A program made the position numbers and the translations under genes. The notes under the pieces were generated by a model. That model had not been told where the DNA came from. It ran no database searches and saw nothing but the letters and a program-made list of their open reading frames with translations. Below are positions 21,209 through 32,713 of a stretch of DNA of 64,000 bases, in pieces. The DNA comes from an uncultured delta proteobacterium. Its GTDB lineage: Bacteria; Myxococcota; Myxococcia; Myxococcales; Anaeromyxobacteraceae. The DNA is taken from assembly GCA_963814585.1 (NCBI GenBank), contig CAWFDF010000009.1:64001-128000 (forward strand), in the 5' to 3' direction. Numbering within the stretch: the stretch's first letter is position 1; the number at the start of each line of letters is the position of its first letter.

Positions 21209-22489
21209 GTCCAGACCGGCTACATCGGTAACGGGCAGACCGGAGACATGGGTAACAGTCTCGGCCCATGCCCTGGACCCAGACCGACCCGATGAGCGAG
21301 CGACTTCGATTCGTGATGGCGCAGCGCAAGCGCAGGTCCACGTTCAGCAGCCTCTGCGCTGCGTTCGGCGTGGCACCGAAGACGGGCTACAAGTGGTTGC
21401 ACCAGTTCGAGGCGTCCGGTGTCGCTGGGCTGCAGGACCGCTCCCGCCGGCCCAAGGGCAACAGCCGAAGCATCTCCGCGACCATGGGCGAGCGCCTGGT
21501 GGAGCTGCGTGGCTTCCATCCCACCTGGGGTCCCAAGAAGCTCGTCGCGTGGCTCGAGGCCAACGAGCGCTGGTGGGATGTGCCGGCTGCGAGCACGGTG
21601 GGCGAACTGCTGAAGCGGCGTGGCCTGGTGAACTCGCGCAAGCGCCAGCGGCATCAGCAACCTCGCACCGATCCGCTGCGCCACGCGGACAAGCCCAACG
21701 CCGTCTGGGCAATGGACTTCAAAGGGTGGTTCCGGCTTGGCGACGGCAGTCGCTGCGATCCACTGACCATCACCGACGCGTTCAGCCGCTACCTCATCTG
21801 CTGCAAGGCCGGGGCGTTGGTGGGCGATGAGGTCTCCAGGGACGTCTGGTGGGCGCTGGTACGAGCATTCCGCGAGTACGGGATACCAACCGCCATCCGC
21901 GTCGACAACGGTCAGCCTTGGGTGGCCCCCAAGGGAAGCCTCGGCCTCACCCAGCTCGCGGTGAAGATCCTGAAGGCCGACATCGCGCTCGAGCGCATCC
22001 GGCCTGCCAAGCCGCAAGACAACGGACGGCACGAGAGATTCCACCTGACGTTGAAGCAGGAGACGGCACAGCCTCCCTCCGAGACGATGCGCGCGCAGCA
22101 GGATCGCTTCGACCTCTTCCAGCGCGAGTACAACCAGGAGCGCCCGCACGAAGCCCTGCAGCAGCGTCCACCAGGTCAGGTTTACGTCGGCTCGCGACGA
22201 GCATTCCCGAGCCGCCTCCCCGAGCCTGAATACCCGAACTGGTACTCCACCGTTGCTCTCAACCCTGGAGGCCTGATGCGACTTGGAGGCACGACCTACT
22301 TCATCAGCACCGCGCTCGAAGGCGAGAGAGTCGGCTTCGTCGAAGTCGAGGAGGGATGCTTTGAGCTCTACTTCTGCAAGATGCTCCTCGGCCGCATCCA
22401 CGTCGCACACCCTGAACTTGGCTTCATCGCCGCCTGAGGACTGTTACCGATGTCTCCGGTCTGGTCGTTACCCATGTTTCCGGTTGCAC
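21209..22489 (+). mobile_element. IS481-family insertion sequence
   Basis: Imperfect inverted repeats of about 50 bp (21209-21260 versus 22439-22489), each with two copies of an accggagacat(c/g)ggtaac-like unit, enclosing one transposase. Visibly lower GC than the flanks. Confidence 0.85.
21268..22437 (+). CDS. IS481-family DDE transposase
   Basis: MPW...ERLRFV...FGVAPKTGYKWL (HTH), HPTWGPKKL, PNAVWAMDFKGWF...PLTITDAFSRY, IRVDNG, PQDNGRHERFHLTLKQE, YNQERPHEAL. Confidence 0.93.
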   Translation: MPWTQTDPMSERLRFVMAQRKRRSTFSSLCAAFGVAPKTGYKWLHQFEASGVAGLQDRSRRPKGNSRSISATMGERLVELRGFHPTWGPKKLVAWLEANERWWDVPAASTVGELLKRRGLVNSRKRQRHQQPRTDPLRHADKPNAVWAMDFKGWFRLGDGSRCDPLTITDAFSRYLICCKAGALVGDEVSRDVWWALVRAFREYGIPTAIRVDNGQPWVAPKGSLGLTQLAVKILKADIALERIRPAKPQDNGRHERFHLTLKQETAQPPSETMRAQQDRFDLFQREYNQERPHEALQQRPPGQVYVGSRRAFPSRLPEPEYPNWYSTVALNPGGLMRLGGTTYFISTALEGERVGFVEVEEGCFELYFCKMLLGRIHVAHPELGFIAA

Positions 22490-22838: not shown

Positions 22839-23273
22839 CTGGCCGAGCTCAAGACCAAGGTCCGCACCGCCAGCGCCAGCGCCTACCTGGCGGCCCTCCC
22901 CGACCCGCGCCGCCGCAAGGACGCAAGGACCGTCGCCGCGCTGATGCGCCGGCTCACCGGCAGCCCGGCCAGGCGCTGGGGGCCGAGCATCATCGGCTTC
23001 GGCCAGGTCCGGCTCCGCTACGCCAGCGGGCGCGAGCTCGACTGGTTCCTGGTCGGCTTCGCGCCGCGCCGGCCGGCCATGGTGCTCTACCTCGGCCTCG
23101 GCGACCTGCTCACCGCGGCGGCCTTGAAGAAGCTCGGCCCCCACCAGCGCGGCCCCAATGCCAACTCGGGCTGCCTCTACCTGAAGACGCTCGAGGGGGT
23201 CGAACTCAAGGTGCTCGAGGGGCTGGTGCGCACCGCCATCGAGCGGGTGCGCGCCAGGGCCGTCAAAGGCTGA
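22839..23273 (+). CDS. DUF1801 (YdhG-like) domain protein with an apparent CTG start
   Basis: The frame of ORF 22944 extends upstream to (L)AELKTKVRTASASAYLAALPDPRRRKDA...WGPSIIGFG...YASGRELDWFLVGFAPR...GCLYLK. GAGGAG lies 6 nt before CTG 22839. Confidence 0.8.
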   Translation: MAELKTKVRTASASAYLAALPDPRRRKDARTVAALMRRLTGSPARRWGPSIIGFGQVRLRYASGRELDWFLVGFAPRRPAMVLYLGLGDLLTAAALKKLGPHQRGPNANSGCLYLKTLEGVELKVLEGLVRTAIERVRARAVKG

Positions 23274-23897
23274 GCCTCCCGCACGCCGCCCTCACCGCCT
23301 CGACCGCCGTCCCCACCGCCGCCGCAACGGCCGGCGTGAGCCCCTCGCCGACGAGATCCATCACCTCCGCCTCCACCAGCACCAGCTCGATCCGCCCCGG
23401 CACCGGCGCCCCGGAGGCCCGCGCCAGCGCCAGGGCCGACGGCAGCCCGACGGCGTGCGGCGACGGGCCGGCCGGCGTGTGGAGCGCCTCGAGCGGCAGG
23501 GCGTGGACGGTGCCGGGCGGGTGCTGGCCGGTCTGGATGGCGTCCACCACCACCACCCGGTCGAACCCCTCCATGTCGTCGAGCAGGTAGAGCCCGGCCC
23601 GCGCACTCACCTTCACGGCCGCCCCCGGCGGCGGCGCCGCCTCGAGCACCCTCGCCACGTGGAGCGCCACCGCGTCGTCGCGGCGCAGCGGGTTGCCGAG
23701 GCAGAGGACCAGCAGTGCGTCGCTCGCGTCCTGCGCGATCGGCCGCGTGGGCCGGGGGTGAGCCGGCTGCCGGCGGAGCGGGTGCGGCGGAGCGGGTGCG
23801 GTGGAGCGGATGCCGGGGAGCGGGCGCCGAGGGCGGGTGCAGTAGGGCGTGAGGTCGGCGCGGTGCCGGTGGGCGCAGGTGCCACCGGGCGCCTCAC
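23263..23897 (-). CDS. Hydrogenase maturation protease (HyaD/HycI family); 5' end out of frame or uncertain, conserved core about 23263-23720
   Basis: LLVLCLGNPLRRDDAVAL, DRVVVVDAI, SPHAVGL. The only coupled start (GTG 23897) is in another frame. Confidence 0.8.
23772..23827. repeat. 14-bp tandem repeat, 4 copies (2 identical)
   Basis: ggcggagcgggtgc / ggcggagcgggtgc / ggtggagcggatgc / cggggagcgggcgc. Confidence 0.8.
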
Positions 23898-25379
23898 GGC
23901 TGCTCCTCGGGCACCCGCTGCCGCAGCACCTCGCGCACGTCGCCGCGGCGCGTCCTTCACCGTCACCACCAGCGGGAGCTCCCCCGGCAGCGAGTGCGAG
24001 GCGCAGGCGTTGCACGGGTCGTAGGCGCGGAAGGCCATCTCCAGCTGGTTGAGCAGGCCGTCGTTCACCACGCCGTCGCGGATCAGGCCGCGCGCCGCCT
24101 TGCGGACCGAGACCTGGACCGGCGCGGCGTTGTGCTGCGAGGCCACCACCAGGTTGACCGCGGTGAGCAGGCCGTCGGCCCCGGCCCGGTAGTGGTGGAT
24201 GAGCGTGCCGCGCGGCGCCTCGACCACCCCCACCCCCTCGGCCGGGCCGGTCAGCGGCCTCGGCACGGTGCGGACGTCGCGCGACGCCAGCAGCGGGTCG
24301 TCGACCGCCGCCGCGACGCGCTCGGCCGCCTGCAGCGCCTCCACCAGGCGCGCCCAGTGGAAGGCCAGGGTCTGGTGGGCCGGCCAGCCCAGCGCCTCGA
24401 AGAGCCGCTGCCGCTCGGCCTCGGCCAGCGGCGTGGCCATGGCGGTGGCCACGTTGAGCCGGGCCAGCGGCCCGACCCGGTAGAGGCCGCTCAGGTCACC
24501 TTCGGTGAAGCCGGTCCAGCCCTTCGACTTGAGGAAGGTGAACTTGGCGTAGGTCCAGGGCTCGACCCGCTCGGCCAGGTGCTCGAGGTAGTCGCGGGGG
24601 GCGAAGCGCAGCTGCTCGGCCCCGGCGGTGTCCACCACCCGCAGCGTGCCGTCGAGGAAGGTGAGCCGGCCGCCCTGGTCCACCATCCCCAGCGAGTGGG
24701 TGCGCAGGCGGTAGACCTCGCTGCCGATGGCGGCGAGGTACTCGCGCTGCCCCAGCACCGCCGCGCGGAAGGACTCGAGGGTGTCGACCGAGAACTGCAC
24801 CAGCCGGGGCGCCGCCTCGCGCAGCTGCGCCAGCGCCTCGGCCGGCATGGGGCGGGAGCAGCCCCCGGGGAGGGCGAAGACCGGGTGGACGGTCCGGCCG
24901 CTGATGGCCGCCATCAGGTCGCGGGCCTCCTTGCGGACCGAGAGGATGCGCCCTCCCAGCGAGGCGCCGACCCGCGCCAGCACGCCGAGGATGTTGCGCA
25001 GCGGCGCCGGCGCCTGGGGGCCGACCACGAAGTCGGGCCCGCCCATGTACCAGTAGTGGAGGAGGTGGTCCTCGAAGATGAAGAGGTCGTAGTAGAGCCG
25101 CTGCAGCGCCAGCGCCGCCGGTGGCGGCGTCACCCCGTAGAGGGCGTCGAGCGCCCGCACCGAGGCCAGGTGGTGGGCGGCGGGGCAGACCCCGCAGACG
25201 TGGGCGGTGAGCTGGGGCATCTCCTCGGCCGGGCGCCCCACGCAGAACCGCTCGAAGCCGCGCAGCTCCGGGATCTGCAGGAAGGCGTGCTGGGCGTTCC
25301 CCTGCTCGTCGAGCAGGATCTCCACCTTGCCGTGCCCCTCCAGCCGGGTGATGGGGTCGATGGTGATCCGGCGCGTCAT
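23894..25379 (-). CDS. mvhA: Group 3c-type [NiFe]-hydrogenase large subunit (apparent +1 frameshift at about 23947 in the C-terminal tail)
   Basis: MTRRITIDPITRLEGHGK, ELRGFERFCVGR, L1 HVCGVC, YRVGPLARLN, VEAPRGTLIHHY, L2 RAYDPCNACASH. The tail reads ...KDARGDVREVLRQRVPEEQP* after removing one base. Confidence 0.92.
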
Positions 25380-26842
25380 GGCGGTCCCTCCGGCAGGCGG
25401 CGCGGCAGCAGCGCCGCGGCCAGGCCGTAGCGCCAGAAGGTGCCGGCCGGGTCGGGGACGCTCGTCGCCAGCGCCCGCTGGGTGGCCTCGTCGCCCGCGA
25501 AGAGCGAGGCGAAGGCCGAGAGCATGGCGGCGCCGCCGTCGACGACCCCGTCGAGCGGCCCGAAGCAGCCCCGGCAGGGCATGTTGGCCTCGACGCAGCC
25601 GGGCTGGCAGCCTTGCCGGGTGGCCGGCCCGTGGCAGATCAGCCCCTGGGCCAGGAAGCAGGTGGCCTCGTCGGGCTGGGTGGTGGCGAGGCGTGCCAGC
25701 GCGGTGAGCTGCAGCCGCTCCGGGCGGGAGCCGTTGCGCGGGCAGGCGTCGCAGAGCGAGGCGTTGGGCGACAGCACCGCGCCCGGCGGCGGGAGGTCCG
25801 CGCCGGCCAGCAGGCGCTCGATGGCGGCGGCCAGGACGGGGGGCGAAGGGGGGCAGCCGGGGATGACGAAGTCGACGGGCACCGCCGCGCCGAGCGGGAT
25901 GGTCCGGCTGAGCAGGGCCGGCAGGGTCAGGTCGTGGCCGGCGGCGGTGACGGGACGGCCGGGCAGCACCTGCTCGGGGTTGGAGACCGAGGGCTGGTCC
26001 CGGTAGGCGGTGACCAGCAGCTCCTCCGGCTCGGAGAGGTTGCCGAGGCCGACCACGCCGCCGAGGTGGGCGCAGGCGCCGAACGCCACCACGGTCCGCG
26101 CCTTGCGGCGCAGCAGCACCGCCCAGTGGTCCTGCTCGTCGAGCCGGATGGCGCCGTTCACGAAGGCCACGTCGATGTGGCCGTCCGGCAGGGCCTCGAC
26201 GTCGGCCCGCTTGGCGTCGATGGCCACCGGCCAGAGCACGATCTCGACGCGTCCGGCCAGCTCGGCGAAGGCCCCGCCCAGGTCCACCACCGCCTCCTCG
26301 CAGCCGCCGCAGGAGGCGTTCCAGTAGAAGGCCACCCGCGGCTTGCCGGGCGCGCGGGGCGCGGCCGGCGCCTCCTCCAGCTGGTGCAGGCGGGCCCGGG
26401 TGGCGCGCACCGCGTCGTCGACCGAGTCGAGCGCGCGCCGCTGGTAGTCGAGCGGCCCGAGCGCCTCGAGCTCGGCGGTCATCCGCGTCGCCACCTCGGC
26501 GAAGCGCGGCCCCTCGGCGGCCCCCACCCACTCGACGCGCAGGCGCTGGCGGGGGATGTGGGCCTGCTCGAGGGCGCGGCCGAGCAGCGTCAGCCTGGCC
26601 GCCGCCCGCAGGTTGCCGTCGACGTGGTGGCAGTCGCCGGGGTGGCAGCCGCCCACCAGCACGCCGTCGGCCCCCTCGCGGAAGGCCTGCAGCACCATGG
26701 CCGGCTCGACGCGGCCGCTGCAGGGCACGCGCACCGGGAGCAGGGTCTGCGGGTAGTCGTGGTGCGAGCTCCCGGCCTTGTCGGCGGCGGCGTAGGCGCA
26801 CCACTCGCAGAGGAAGGCGACGATGCGGGGGGCGCGGGTCAC
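25376..26842 (-). CDS. mvhD-mvhG: Fusion of MvhD ([2Fe-2S] subunit) and MvhG ([NiFe]-hydrogenase small subunit)
   Basis: N-terminus IVAFLCEWCAYAAAD...RVPCSGRV...GADGVLVGGCHPGDCHH...EWVGAAEG. After a linker: AFYWNASCGGCEE...NGAIR...FGACA...IPGCPP...CDACPR...CFLAQGLICHGPATRQGC...CRGCFGP. Confidence 0.9.
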   Translation of the reverse strand: MTRAPRIVAFLCEWCAYAAADKAGSSHHDYPQTLLPVRVPCSGRVEPAMVLQAFREGADGVLVGGCHPGDCHHVDGNLRAAARLTLLGRALEQAHIPRQRLRVEWVGAAEGPRFAEVATRMTAELEALGPLDYQRRALDSVDDAVRATRARLHQLEEAPAAPRAPGKPRVAFYWNASCGGCEEAVVDLGGAFAELAGRVEIVLWPVAIDAKRADVEALPDGHIDVAFVNGAIRLDEQDHWAVLLRRKARTVVAFGACAHLGGVVGLGNLSEPEELLVTAYRDQPSVSNPEQVLPGRPVTAAGHDLTLPALLSRTIPLGAAVPVDFVIPGCPPSPPVLAAAIERLLAGADLPPPGAVLSPNASLCDACPRNGSRPERLQLTALARLATTQPDEATCFLAQGLICHGPATRQGCQPGCVEANMPCRGCFGPLDGVVDGGAAMLSAFASLFAGDEATQRALATSVPDPAGTFWRYGLAAALLPRRLPEGPP

Positions 26843-28806
26843 GTCGCCGCCCCGGCCCGGGCGCCGGCCAGCAGCGCCGAGATCTCCGCGGTCAGCTGGG
26901 CCCGGGTGGAGTGGGGCGCGGCCGCCGCGCCGGTGGGGCAGGCGGCGGCGCACCCGCCGCAGGCGTGGCAGTAGGCGGCCTCGACCGTGGCCTTGTGGGT
27001 GGCCGGATCGCGGACCACGGCGTGGTAGGGGCAGGCGGCGGTGCAGGTCCCGCAGCCGCCGCAGAGGACCGGGTCGATCTCGGCGGCCAGCGCCGTCAGC
27101 TCGCGCCGCTCGCCCGGCACCAGCGTGGCCAGCACGCGCCCCGCGGCGGCGGCGCCGTCCCGGATGGACTCGCGGATGGAGCGCGGGCCGGCGGCGGCGC
27201 CGGCGACGAACACCCCCGCCACCCGCGTGGCCGTCGGCTCGAACGGGTTGGCCGACCCCTCGGCCAGGAAGCCGCGCGGGTCGCGGTCCAGCCGCAGCAG
27301 CGCCGCCAGCGCCTCGGCTCCCTCCGCCGGCGTCGAGGCGGCGTGGAGGACCACCAGGTCGAAGGCCCGCGACGTCTCCAGCGGCCCGAGCGCGAGCCGG
27401 ACCGAGACCGCCTCGCCGGCCGGAGCCAGCCCGCCCGGCCGCAGCTCCTCGTCGAGCAGGAGGACGCCCTCCCCGGCCGCGGCCAGGGCCTCGGCGGCGA
27501 GCCCGGGCGTGCGCCCCAGGCCGCCCGCCACCGCCACCGCCAGCCCGGGCCAGCGCCGCCGCAGCCCGCGCGCCAGCTTGAGCAGCTCGCGGGACGGCAG
27601 CGCGCCGTCGCGGTCGCCGGCCGTCGAGGCCAGCAGCACCGAGCTCGGCTCCGGCCGGCCGGCCAGGGTGAGCCGGCCGCCGGTGGGGCCGCCCGGGTGG
27701 AGCAGGCGCTCCAGCTGCCAGGTGGAGATGACGCCGGGAGGACCGGCCACCTCGCCGGGGCGGAACCCGGTCGCCAGCACCAGGGCGCCGGCGGTGAGCC
27801 TTCGCTCCTCGGGCCTGGCGTCGAGCCGGATGGCGTCGAAGCCGCAGGCCGCCAGGCAGGCGTCGCAGCTGCCGTCGCGGTGGTGCAGGCAGGCCGCCGC
27901 GTCGAGCACGGCCAGGTGGGGCAGCGAGCCGGCGTAGGCGGCGCCGATGGCCCGCCGGGACCCGAGGCCGGCCGCCCACGGGTCCGGCACCTCGACCGGG
28001 CAGCGCAGGCTGCACTCGCCGCAGCCGATGCACCGCTGCGGGTCGACGAACCTGGGGGCCAGCGCCGCCGTCACCTCGAAGGCGCCGGGCGTGCCGCGCA
28101 CCCGCGTCACCGTGGCGCCGGTGAGCAGCTCGATCCGATCGTGGTGGAGCACCTCGTCGAGCGCCGGCTCCATGAAGCAGGAGGCGCAGACGTGGTCGGG
28201 GAAGATCTCGTCGAGCTGCGCGGCCAGCCCGCCCAGCGCCGGCGACCGCTCCACCAGCAGCACCCGGCGGTCCTTCCTCGCCAGCGTCAGCGCCGCCGCC
28301 ACGCCGGCCGCGCCGCCGCCCACCACCACCACGTCGGCGACCACGTCGACCTCGCGCCGCGCCCGGGGCTGGTGGCGGGCCACGCGGGCCAGCCCGGCCC
28401 GCACCAGCCGCTCGGCGCGCGCCGTGGCCGCCTCGGCCGCGCCGCCGATCCACTCCACCTGCTCGCGCAGGTTGACCAGCTGCAGGAGGTACGGGTTTCG
28501 CCCGGCCCGGGCCATCACGGCGCGGAAGGTGAGCTCGTGCTCGCGCGGGGAGCAGGCGGCGACCACCAGCCGGTCGAGCCGCTCCCGCCGAAGCCAGTCG
28601 GCCAGCCAGTCCTGGCCCTCCGCCGAGCAGAGGATCGGCTGGGTGGTCACCGCCGCCGCCTCGGGCCAGTGGGCCGCCGCCTCGAGCGGGCCGAGCTCGA
28701 TCAGGTTGAAGAGGTTGGGGCCGCAGCGGCAGAGGACCAGGCCGATCCGGCCGGTCTCCGGTTCGGGCGGGGCCGCGGCGGGTCCGGGCGGTGGCGGCGC
28801 GGTCAC
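26839..28806 (-). CDS. hdrA: HdrA-family (heterodisulfide reductase subunit A-like) FAD/iron-sulfur protein, divergent
   Basis: RIGLVLCRCG...LCSAEGQ...VVAACSPREHELTF...NLREQ, FAD motif VVGGGAAG, FPDHVCASC, inserted and C-terminal 2x[4Fe-4S] ferredoxin motifs, GVFVAGAAAGP. Confidence 0.88.
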   Translation of the reverse strand: MTAPPPPGPAAAPPEPETGRIGLVLCRCGPNLFNLIELGPLEAAAHWPEAAAVTTQPILCSAEGQDWLADWLRRERLDRLVVAACSPREHELTFRAVMARAGRNPYLLQLVNLREQVEWIGGAAEAATARAERLVRAGLARVARHQPRARREVDVVADVVVVGGGAAGVAAALTLARKDRRVLLVERSPALGGLAAQLDEIFPDHVCASCFMEPALDEVLHHDRIELLTGATVTRVRGTPGAFEVTAALAPRFVDPQRCIGCGECSLRCPVEVPDPWAAGLGSRRAIGAAYAGSLPHLAVLDAAACLHHRDGSCDACLAACGFDAIRLDARPEERRLTAGALVLATGFRPGEVAGPPGVISTWQLERLLHPGGPTGGRLTLAGRPEPSSVLLASTAGDRDGALPSRELLKLARGLRRRWPGLAVAVAGGLGRTPGLAAEALAAAGEGVLLLDEELRPGGLAPAGEAVSVRLALGPLETSRAFDLVVLHAASTPAEGAEALAALLRLDRDPRGFLAEGSANPFEPTATRVAGVFVAGAAAGPRSIRESIRDGAAAAGRVLATLVPGERRELTALAAEIDPVLCGGCGTCTAACPYHAVVRDPATHKATVEAAYCHACGGCAAACPTGAAAAPHSTRAQLTAEISALLAGARAGAAT

Positions 28807-28810
28807 ACCA

Positions 28811-29032
28811 TCAGTACTGGATGAGGATGACGGTCCTGGCGCCGTCGGCGCGGACGGCCAGCATGGTCCTGCGGCGGCGCTCGCAGAAGGTCCGGATGTC
28901 CTTCTCGAAGGTGGGGCAGTCCCCGGTGATCTCGACCACGGTGCCGGACCGGGTCTCGGCAGTCTCCACGGCGAGCTTCAGGACCGGCTGGGGGCAGCGC
29001 ATGCCGGTGCAGTCGATCTTCAGCACGTCCAT
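28811..29032 (-). CDS. tusA: TusA/SirA family sulfur carrier protein
   Basis: MDVLKIDCTGMRCPQPVLKL...VVEITGDCPTFEKDIRTFC with the CPxP motif, 73 aa. GGAGG RBS; the start could be TTG 29038. Confidence 0.88.
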   Translation of the reverse strand: MDVLKIDCTGMRCPQPVLKLAVETAETRSGTVVEITGDCPTFEKDIRTFCERRRRTMLAVRADGARTVILIQY

Positions 29033-29097
29033 GGCCAAGGTGGTTCGCCTCCTGGAGGTCTGGGAGGCCCGGGGGGAGGCGACCCACACCAGGCCTG

Positions 29098-29127
29098 ACC
29101 TTACCGGAGCGGATCCGGGCGAGTCAA
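29098..29127 (-). promoter_or_regulatory. Putative sigma70 promoter of the tusA-hdrA-mvh operon
   Basis: TTGACT-N18-TAAGGT on the minus strand, preceded by a T-run. Confidence 0.5.
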
Positions 29128-29172: not shown

Positions 29173-29631
29173 TCAGTCCGCCACGTCCTCGGCCAGGATG
29201 AGCCGGTAGATCTCCTCGGACGAGGGCGCCGCCAGGATGGCCTCCCGGAAGGCGGCCACCCGGAAGATCCGGCTCACACGGGAGAGCGCCTTGAGGTGCG
29301 CCCCGGCGGAGTTCTCCGGCGCGAAGAGGGCGAAGAAGATCCGGGCCGGCTTGCCGTCGGCGGCCCGGTACTCGATCCCCTCCCGCGAGCGGCCCACGGT
29401 GGCCACCAGCGCCGGCAGCCCGGGCCACTTGCCGTGCGGGATGGCGACGCCGTCCCCGACGCCGGTCGACCCGAGCTTCTCGCGGTCGAGCAGCACCTGG
29501 ACCAGGCGCGCGGCGTCCAGCCCGTTGACCTGCGCCACCGGCCGGCACAGCTCGGCCAGCACCTCGGCGGCGGTGCGGCCCTGCAAGTCGGCCAGCACCG
29601 CCTGCGGCTGGAGGAAGTCCTGGATCTTCAC
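29173..29631 (-). CDS. ptsN: PTS IIA nitrogen-regulatory protein
   Basis: LLDREKLGSTGVGDGVAIPHGK...HLKALSRVSR. Follows rpoN-hpf. Confidence 0.92.
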   Translation of the reverse strand: MKIQDFLQPQAVLADLQGRTAAEVLAELCRPVAQVNGLDAARLVQVLLDREKLGSTGVGDGVAIPHGKWPGLPALVATVGRSREGIEYRAADGKPARIFFALFAPENSAGAHLKALSRVSRIFRVAAFREAILAAPSSEEIYRLILAEDVAD

Positions 29632-29670
29632 CCTGAGCTCGTCCTTTCGCCCGGCGGCGAGACCCTCGCG

Positions 29671-30219
29671 CTAGGAGGTGCGCGCCTCGATCAGGCCGAG
29701 GCTGCCGTCCTCCCTCCGGTAGAGGACGTTGATGGCACGATCCGCGGCATTCTGGAAGACGAAGAACTGGCTCCCCAGCAGGTCGAGCTGGAGGATGGCG
29801 TCGTCCACCGACATCTGCTTGGCCTGGAAGACCCGGCTCTTGGCCACCCGGTGGCTGGGCTTCTCCGGGTGCTCGATGATGTCGATGACGTCGTGGCGCA
29901 CCTCGACCGGCGCCGGCTCGACGTGCCCCGACTTGTGGTCCTGCAGCTTGGCCTTGTGCTTCTTGAGCTGCCGCTCGATCTTGTCGGCCGCCTCGTCGAT
30001 GGAGGCGTACATGTCCTTGGTCTTGGCGGTGCCGCGGAGCAGGAACCGCCCCGCCTTCACCGTCAGCTCGGCGTGGTGGGCCAGGTTCTCGACGTGGAGC
30101 ACGGCGTGGGCCTCGGAGGGCCGATCGATGAAGCGCTGGACGTGCTCGACCCTTCCCTTGACGTGCGACTTGAGCGCTTCGGTGGGCTCCAGGTGCCGGA
30201 ACGTGATGTTCACCTGCAT
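29671..30219 (-). CDS. hpf: Ribosome hibernation promoting factor (long HPF / RaiA)
   Basis: MQVNITFRHLEPTEALK...DMYASIDEAADKIERQLKKHK...MSVDDAILQLDLLG...NVLYRREDG. GAGGAGG RBS. Confidence 0.93.
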   Translation of the reverse strand: MQVNITFRHLEPTEALKSHVKGRVEHVQRFIDRPSEAHAVLHVENLAHHAELTVKAGRFLLRGTAKTKDMYASIDEAADKIERQLKKHKAKLQDHKSGHVEPAPVEVRHDVIDIIEHPEKPSHRVAKSRVFQAKQMSVDDAILQLDLLGSQFFVFQNAADRAINVLYRREDGSLGLIEARTS

Positions 30220-30246
30220 GGACCGCCTCCTCTGTGGGTGCGCTGG

Positions 30247-30374
30247 GCGTGCTGCCGACATGCTTCGGCCGCGAGCCTCGCGCTCAGCGGAGCGTGGAGG
30301 ACATCGCGGCCGTGGTTGCTGCCAGCTGCCAGCATGTCGAGGAAATGATAGCAGGGCGGCCGGCGGCAGCACGC
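30247..30374 (-). ncRNA. Candidate structured cis-regulatory RNA in the rpoN-hpf intergenic region
   Basis: Nested perfect complementary segments: 30256-30264/30331-30339, 30266-30274/30304-30312, 30281-30285/30290-30294 and 30247-30257/30364-30374. Confidence 0.4.
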
Positions 30375-30450
30375 GGATCCGGACGACTTTCTCAGGGCCG
30401 ATCCGGCGGTCGCAGGGGGCGCGGCCGTACGCCGCGCCAACCACCCGGAT

Positions 30451-32713
<2,263 letters not shown>

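Follow-up and report, generated by a model that had tools for sequence, protein, structure and literature searches.

The window analysed here, a stretch of 64,000 nucleotides from an uncultured bacterium of the Anaeromyxobacteraceae (assembly GCA_963814585.1, contig CAWFDF010000009.1, positions 64,001 to 128,000), carries on its minus strand a hydrogenase locus in which tusA, hdrA, a fused mvhD-mvhG gene, mvhA and a maturation protease gene follow each other in this order, with 4-nucleotide gaps or overlaps. Gene coordinates and family matches agree with the initial annotation of this DNA, which had described one tightly coupled operon encoding TusA, an HdrA-like protein, MvhD-MvhG, MvhA and a protease. 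The tusA gene (28811–29032; PF01206) encodes 73 residues, and the hdrA variant (26839–28806), assigned through the HdrA models, an AlphaFold model and Foldseek, encodes 655. The fused mvhD-mvhG reading frame (25376–26842; PF02662 and PF01058) specifies 488 residues, including 17 Cys, and is followed by mvhA (23613–25379; PF00374; VhuA with an E-value of 2e-102), an MvhA-type [NiFe] large subunit of 588 residues as assembled. The protease gene (23263–23712; PF01750; TIGR00072 with 115 bits, above cut-off) closes the operon; it shows no clear start codon.

The window HdrA matches the HdrA models with E-values of 1e-92 to 1e-132, yet scores far below their cut-offs. The fold is intact: the AlphaFold model reaches a mean predicted local distance difference test score (pLDDT) of 93.8, and its best Foldseek matches are the HdrA subunits of 5ODC, 8RVU and 7BKB. 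The N-terminal cluster domain, the site for flavin adenine dinucleotide (FAD) and the two 2x[4Fe-4S] domains are retained, and the ligands of the HA4 cluster are lost. In the alignments, residues 385–412 (27571–27654, minus strand), the stretch that holds the four HA4 Cys in canonical HdrA, contain none, and the alignment to methanogen HdrA breaks at the start of this Cys-rich stretch. The four Cys of a sister protein with an intact motif, which we take to be the HA4 ligands, align to S, G, P/S and R/E. An independent contig (X1 record 6) covers the region without gaps. This loss is the key fact missed in the initial annotation. It extends to the relatives: among 119 homologs of 55–89% identity (the best 120 of 295 listed, minus the window's own protein), 117 have no Cys in the stretch and two have one. 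Conversely, E366, K410, C207, C210, R542 and the GxGxxG glycines are present in 119/119, and all other cluster Cys, including the N-terminal cluster Cys and all 16 of the ferredoxin domains, in at least 116. The C207-x-x-C210 pair (28177–28188, minus strand) aligns, in 8RVU and 5ODC, to the two Cys that lie between MvhD and FAD. E366 and K410, the equivalents of E356/K409 at the FAD, lie in the HA4/NADP-like domain (residues 358–492; 27331–27735, minus strand), which is deleted in frame in genus g9.

A FastTree analysis of 72 HdrA sequences places the window protein in a 49-row clade with support 99, apart from most canonical HdrAs. The columns of the trait itself were dropped and the fragmentary rows P0128, P0209, P0221, P0227, P0242 and P0264 omitted; trait states were assigned by regular expression, and the P-numbered rows enter without known genomic context. 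Well-supported branches force at least three changes for loss of the HA4 Cys and at least four for the domain deletion. The ratio of nonsynonymous to synonymous rates (dN/dS), whose denominator is compressed by the high G+C content, is below 1 for every whole gene in 5/5 pairs.

In the published mechanism, as described in the relevant parts of PMC13580544 and PMC12350162, FAD passes its high-potential electron through HA4 to HdrB and its low-potential one through HA3 to HA5/HA6. PMC13580544 further places a conserved Cys pair, with a ligand described as unknown, between MvhD and FAD, and E356/K409 are proposed as markers of bifurcating HdrA in the corresponding part of PMC12054007. HdrBC are listed in PMC6085437, in the portion that concerns these enzymes, as part of the minimum bifurcating set. 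The absence of HdrB and HdrC that had been noted for the operon and the window holds for the whole genome (G000, 91.7% complete), which encodes one HdrA and one MvhD. Model TIGR03288 detects no HdrB in it, and the HdrC model TIGR03290 gives nothing above noise, with three weak matches inside other proteins. The 11 matches to the CCG domain resolve into six open reading frames, whose best matches are GlcF, LutA, a FadF-like protein (twice), a rubrerythrin-linked GlpC-like protein and an FAD-oxidase fusion, and whose surroundings relate to glycolate, lactate, fatty acids and rubrerythrin; the labels FadF and LutA are provisional. The two FadF-like proteins lie on two near-identical stretches. 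Contig C18:10000–24192 repeats C9:297000–314000 almost gene for gene with different frameshifts, and is probably an assembly duplicate or a second strain.

Relatives give the same result. The HdrB model has matches in four of the 92 family genomes, none above its cut-off; two of the four (G029 and G046) also carry mvhD-G, and the HdrB-like gene stands in separate loci with hdrA-like genes of its own. Five single-contig family genomes lack HdrB and give no match to the HdrC query, a query used without positive control. In a metagenome scan with distant subfamily members, of which the best 80 of 475 matches were kept, many on short contigs, references for HdrB, HdrC, HdrD and QmoC found no match in 80/80 loci and were recovered in 6/6 control loci; no hdrBC-linked ancestral state was found among these 80. 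Thus neither the vicinity of the module nor the closed genomes of relatives hold the cognate hdrBC pair that had been named as a possible refutation, and in a survey of neighbourhoods, likewise proposed there, the combination of tusA, hdrA and mvh stands without HdrB, HdrC or HdrD. Since HdrC, HdrB and the HA4 ligands are all missing, the entire high-potential arm is, judged from sequence, gone, with the input, the flavin site and the ferredoxin arm kept. Two defining features of the bifurcating MvhADG-HdrABC family were tested, HdrB plus HdrC anywhere in the genome and HA4 [4Fe-4S] ligands in the thioredoxin-reductase domain, and neither was found; as read from its genes, the module is therefore not a member of that family though built from its parts. 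Other hdr loci free of HdrBC occur in the Anaeromyxobacteraceae, with the arrangement hdrA-qmoC-like-hdrA beside Mvh or Flx genes (L054:3599–11600, L086:6551–16215 and L087:546–12271); L087 also has a second two-Cys tusA, placed before a kinase and a sigma54 activator ahead of the hdr locus.

The TusA of the operon belongs to PF01206 by its CPxP motif and its fold, and does not reach the cut-offs of the equivalog models for TusA and YedF. It combines the CPxP Cys, C13, with a second conserved Cys in the pair D38-C39. C13, D38 and C39 are invariant in 33/33 aligned TusAs and also present in the best 120 of 3245 database matches; in E. coli TusA the C39 position is occupied by Asp. Two other TusA genes of the genome lack the second Cys and stand beside tRNA-thiolation-like and sulfur-carrier genes (labels assigned by inspection). 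The mvhD-G query matches 44/92 family genomes (27/54 of high quality), one of which, G046, has a different system, and the TusA profile matches 43/92; 40 genomes have both, three TusA only and four mvhD-G only, counts that are not independent as the genomes are kin. HdrA homologs carry the names of A. dehalogenans (P0101), A. oryzae, A. terrae and A. oryzisoli. In 12/12 loci taken from Anaeromyxobacteraceae-like records, tusA follows ptsN and immediately precedes hdrA; 11 of these continue into mvhD-G and leave no room for hdrBC. The order is hdrA-tusA-mvhD/G in G049, G073 and G102, and in G051 (L055) TusA is fused to the HdrA C-terminus in a protein of 718 residues. In G070 and G072 the whole HdrA domain 358–492, E366/K410 included, is deleted in frame; the GxGxxG motif and the CxxC pair remain. 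Fifteen of the best 80 metagenome loci are Anaeromyxobacter-like, 13 of them with tusA. Among the other 65, tusA is present in 22, and in 15/18 of those with at least 900 nucleotides beyond mvhA; the usual order there is hdrA-mvhD-mvhG-mvhA-(protease)-tusA. Co-distribution, the HdrA-TusA fusion and recurrence of the module in other lineages support the earlier description of a reduced Mvh-HdrA module without HdrBC and with TusA as dedicated partner.

Outside Anaeromyxobacter, tusA is often followed by signalling genes. In 8/15 loci with at least 2 kilobases behind tusA, the next same-strand gene is a PAS histidine kinase or a chemoreceptor, and in G135 a stressosome RsbR gene lies behind mvhD-hdrA-tusA. 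These kinases, chemoreceptors and the RsbR have in common a distinctive tandem HAMP-like repeat, for which a database cluster search gave only HAMP-type clusters and Pfam HAMP a weak match in 7/9 members. A profile that included seven of the eight receptor/kinase genes detected the repeat in six of 401 sampled genomes of the phylum; among the 401, this TusA occurs in five outside the family. A repeat-bearing RsbR gene directly follows tusA in G103, G113 and G201 as well as in G135, and in G103 and G201 the locus is next to hypF. Stressosome genes (for RsbS, RsbT/RsbX types and an RsbR with HAMP-like repeat) come after tusA in L075:8914–12167, L196:5733–8918, L197:5199–8428 and L198:4637–6202, two of these beside hypF. 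Two repeat-bearing genomes without TusA carry an H-NOX (HNOB) gene at a stressosome of the same type (L199:1409–4858 and L200:1225–4926). Furthermore, a search for longer TusA-containing proteins gave 18 matches (P0272–P0289), all with the two-Cys motif; 16 have a kinase ATPase domain, 15 of these also a PAS domain, with the two-Cys TusA domain C-terminal. One of the kinase fusions is named from a Halobacteriota archaeon, and all probably form one clade. Another of the 18 joins TusA to a Cys-rich CW domain that also begins kinases behind tusA. Because of these genomic links, and as no DsrC was found in G000, the TusA subfamily points more to signalling than to sulfur metabolism. A role in sulfur respiration via DsrC was set aside on the same negative result; one weak DsrE match lies on another contig.

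The hydrogenase itself is complete in its MvhA, MvhG and MvhD parts. MvhA has the motifs VCGVCPAAH (L1) and AYDPCNACASH (L2), comparable to the ICGxCxxxH and AYDPCccCATH given in PMC6085437. Its best NCBIfam match is VhuA, and the scores against structures are close (7T2R 338, 5XF9, of group 3d, 325 and 5ODC 323 bits); the three-cluster MvhG, the MvhD and the HdrA context favour [NiFe] group 3c, and a separate Hox operon is found on C10. Two further [NiFe] enzymes of the genome are of Hyb and Hox type, the hydrogenase maturation genes lie on contig C3, and two small ferredoxins are encoded. The 588-residue frame of mvhA is about 95 codons too long in comparison with 493–515 residues in 10/10 complete relatives. 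The window DNA matches the last residues of relatives' MvhA in another frame, with a stop at 23894–23896; as the shift falls after the L2 motif and frameshifts occur elsewhere in the assembly too (hypD is in three pieces), the overrun is most likely a one-base assembly indel. Other contigs cover 23756–23969 only thinly. The roughly 180 bases that separate the probable mvhA end from the protease domain (23715–23893) have low coding character; close relatives have 0–40 bases at this position. A short HypA-like gene (81–86 residues) directly precedes hdrA in two metagenome loci, L159:2393–2638 and L169:4607–4867, and small NifU_N/IscU-like and SaoD/DsrE-like genes stand right after the protease in several Anaeromyxobacter genomes (L044:13626–14251, L047:13419–14095, L065:4911–5560 and L066:4837–5513).

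Upstream of tusA, the sequence TTGACT-N18-TAAGGT (29098–29127, minus strand) is a candidate sigma70-like promoter element. The initial annotation had credited the operon with a candidate promoter of its own; a similar element recurs in 14/23 upstream regions compared, but a strict promoter scanner does not pass the element starting at 29127 and found nothing. The genes rpoN-hpf-ptsN lie directly upstream (29173–31962), and in most family genomes the module stands between ptsN and lepB. A functional link to rpoN-hpf-ptsN was set aside, since the module carries a promoter element of its own and stands at another site in G051 and G102. At the other end, an IS481-family transposase gene (rve_3, HTH, LZ_Tnp_IS481; 21268–22437) is inserted between lepB and the operon end and was not seen at the equivalent place in the relatives' loci compared. 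A plus-strand open reading frame of 109 residues (22944–23273) overlaps the protease stop; it has no Pfam match at E 0.01, and a homolog 83% identical stands at the equivalent place in L037.

Among known systems, MvhAGD-HdrABC of hydrogenotrophic methanogens (5ODC, 8RVU and 9SW2; group 3c) is alike in MvhA, MvhG, MvhD and the full-length HdrA fold (about 30% identity, template modelling scores of 0.72–0.79), as well as in the E356/K409 equivalents, the Cys pair near FAD, the MvhD His/Asp equivalents and all clusters but one. Unlike that complex, the window module has no HdrB/HdrC and no HA4 ligands, its MvhD is fused to MvhG, and TusA is in the operon or, in one relative, fused to HdrA. The same large subunit and fused delta-gamma subunit were noted in 2008 in A. 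dehalogenans 2CP-C as Adeh_4162 and Adeh_4163 (PMC2330069); that paper, in the passages concerned, discusses neither HdrA, TusA nor a mechanism, and it lacks the word heterodisulfide. An Mvh-HdrA locus whose genome has neither HdrB nor HdrC has been published for 'Ca. Symbiobacter mobilis', where the genome description, in the part concerned (PMC4053972), proposes confurcation with an NADH-binding HdrA; the window HdrA, in contrast, has no added NADH-binding domain, has lost HA4 and is accompanied by TusA. Excerpts of other genome papers mention HdrL/MvhD (hdrA-mvhD) loci in Desulfobacterium autotrophicum (PMC2702500) and Mvh with HdrAC2 in Dissulfuribacter (PMC13490349). The sHdr-TusA-DsrE system of sulfur oxidisers (6TJR) likewise ties a TusA-family carrier genetically to an HdrA-like flavoprotein, but keeps HdrB/HdrC and has no hydrogenase, as far as the pertinent parts of PMC11094781 go. 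Its clusters combine sHdrB/sHdrC, DsrE and rhodanese genes; the window module has no HdrB/C. Moreover, sHdrA is short (340 residues, 19% identity to the window HdrA), and the window TusA has a different type of motif. Sensory hydrogenases ([NiFe] 2b/2c and [FeFe] C1–C3, as classed in the HydDB table of PMC5037454) resemble the wider family of the module in the linkage of hydrogenase genes to histidine kinases, chemoreceptors or phosphatases. The enzyme described here differs from them in being group-3c-like with a maturation protease and in being linked via HdrA and TusA; a linked kinase, chemoreceptor or stressosome was found in other lineages and not, as judged by the HAMP-like repeat in 66 sampled genomes, in the window's family. 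No description of tusA with hdrA-mvh, of an HA4-less HdrA or of the receptor link was found among top-ranked literature results, though Appel 2021 and Wagner 2017 may cover it, nor does the module appear in the portions consulted of PMC5947623, PMC6019823, PMC8542988, PMC8092238 and bioRxiv 2024.09.26.615249.

Gene content, loss of HA4 ligands, conservation, fusions and neighbourhoods are observed, and all chemistry and all binding in the following scheme are inferred. A cytoplasmic group-3c-type [NiFe] hydrogenase, made of MvhA and the fused MvhD-G, would feed an HdrA that no longer works with HdrB/HdrC. Assuming the path seen in the methanogen structures, electrons would pass from H2 via MvhA, MvhG and the MvhD [2Fe-2S] cluster to C207/C210 and FAD, and with HA4 gone the one-electron exit to HdrC/HdrB would be closed. 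The dedicated small partner would be the two-Cys TusA, with a C13/C39 disulfide or a persulfide as two-electron acceptor, most likely reduced in a thioredoxin-reductase-like two-electron step at the FAD or at C207/C210, independent of HA4. Such an HA4-independent role is supported by G070 and G072, which keep TusA at 79–81% identity despite deletion of the HA4 domain. A C-terminal fusion would put TusA near MvhD, which in methanogens approaches the Cys pair. Exchange with ferredoxin probably continues too, since the ferredoxin arm is under selection. The initial annotation placed TusA in the position of the disulfide reductase; TusA as the partner stands, but it cannot take HdrC's route via HA4, and the mechanism must differ. 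We tentatively prefer H2-driven, HdrBC-independent reduction of the TusA Cys pair with the ferredoxin arm retained. Several observations weigh against it. The route via C207/C210 and FAD to TusA fits all variants but is only one such route; E. coli YedF (1JE3) has Cys at the C39 position, so that the second Cys is not unique; and the deletion of E366/K410 in genus g9 indicates that a tuned flavin is not needed everywhere. The canonical HA4 motif is kept in 20 of the 22 non-Anaeromyxobacter tusA loci among the best 80, and TusA may therefore work with or without HA4. Nor does TusA go solely with the Mvh-HdrA complex: G074 has lost hdrA-mvh and kept tusA and the protease, and a solitary TusA copy stands among unrelated genes in about a dozen genomes of the family. 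In addition, hdrA evolves faster than mvhA (dN/dS 0.37–0.69 versus 0.16–0.34) and is the most relaxed gene.

Kinases, chemoreceptors or stressosomes appear to sense the state of TusA in many other lineages. It is conceivable, albeit doubtful, that Mvh-HdrA-TusA is an H2/redox-sensing pathway, in which the hydrogenase and a repurposed HdrA would set a TusA thiol state read by histidine kinases, chemoreceptors and stressosomes via the HAMP-like repeat, with H-NOX as a substitute for TusA at some loci and kinase fusions of TusA in archaea; the form in Anaeromyxobacteraceae would then be a derived, stripped, HA4-less H2-dependent protein-thiol reductase. For the window this is opposed by the absence of the HAMP-like repeat and the CW domain from G000, and of the repeat from all 66 sampled family genomes and from the HA4-less relative G102. 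Rather unlikely is a plain, non-bifurcating H2:ferredoxin oxidoreductase, for uptake or H2 release, with HdrA as a wire and TusA as an accessory (sulfur donor for cluster or ligand assembly, or regulator) and not a substrate. The near-invariance of the 16 ferredoxin-domain Cys and the N-terminal cluster Cys, the two small ferredoxins and the deletion in g9 of the entire HA4 domain, E/K included, which suits a wire, are in line with it, as are the IscU-like and SaoD/DsrE-like genes after the protease in L044, L047, L065 and L066 and the action of TusA proteins in cofactor and iron–sulfur (Fe-S) metabolism mentioned in sections of PMC11094781. However, it leaves without explanation the invariance of E366/K410 (119/119) inside a drifting domain, the TusA-kinase fusions and the hdrA-tusA pairs that lack a large subunit in L075, L110 and L136. 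That invariance, with the intact ferredoxin arm, is what could be expected if the complex still bifurcated, with TusA binding a metal or Fe-S via C8/C13/C39 (and D38) to replace HA4/HdrC as one-electron high-potential acceptor and ferredoxin taking the low-potential electron. Most family TusAs do have C8 besides C13, C39 and C50; but most TusAs from outside the family lack C8, as does the HdrA-fused one, E/K are deleted in g9, and the literature consulted contains no Fe-S-binding TusA, all of which makes such an arrangement improbable. A decaying remnant of a full hdrABC-mvh locus, also named earlier as a possible refutation, is very unlikely. Loss of HA4, further domain deletion in g9, the patchy presence (44/92) with loss of hdrA-mvh in G074, the higher dN/dS of hdrA and the frameshift at the mvhA end could be taken as decay, but general decay is not what is seen, given the intact frames and invariant cofactor ligands across the 119 homologs, the dN/dS below 1 of whole genes, the conserved promoter element and the lack of an hdrBC-linked ancestral state in the metagenome loci. 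Least probable of all is that HdrA works with HdrBC, HdrD or another CCG protein encoded elsewhere, as the initial annotation had offered and as in methanogens with scattered hdr genes. Such genes are often unlinked (PMC6085437, in the portion cited above), the genome is incomplete and six CCG proteins are present; yet neither G000 nor the five closed relatives have HdrB/HdrC, the CCG proteins belong to other contexts, and since the HA4 cluster, which would carry electrons to HdrC/HdrB, is itself lost, partners in trans are hard to reconcile with this HdrA.

Taken together, a soil-dwelling relative of the myxobacteria has a methanogen-type H2-splitting complex whose disulfide-reducing arm is lost altogether and which has kept a small two-Cys carrier; this suggests an undescribed way to turn H2 into thiol-reducing power or into a signal. 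Group 3c hydrogenases beside hdrA are routinely read in genome papers as bifurcating heterodisulfide systems, a reading that cannot hold for this widespread class. HdrA proteins from which HA4, and in one genus the entire domain including E356/K409, has been removed naturally while the rest is intact are ready-made variants that bear on how the HdrA flavin receives and passes on electrons and on the role of the conserved Cys pair. As the module is present in cultured Anaeromyxobacter species, it is directly testable, and the link between TusA and receptors, if true, would be a new route of hydrogen sensing in anaerobes.

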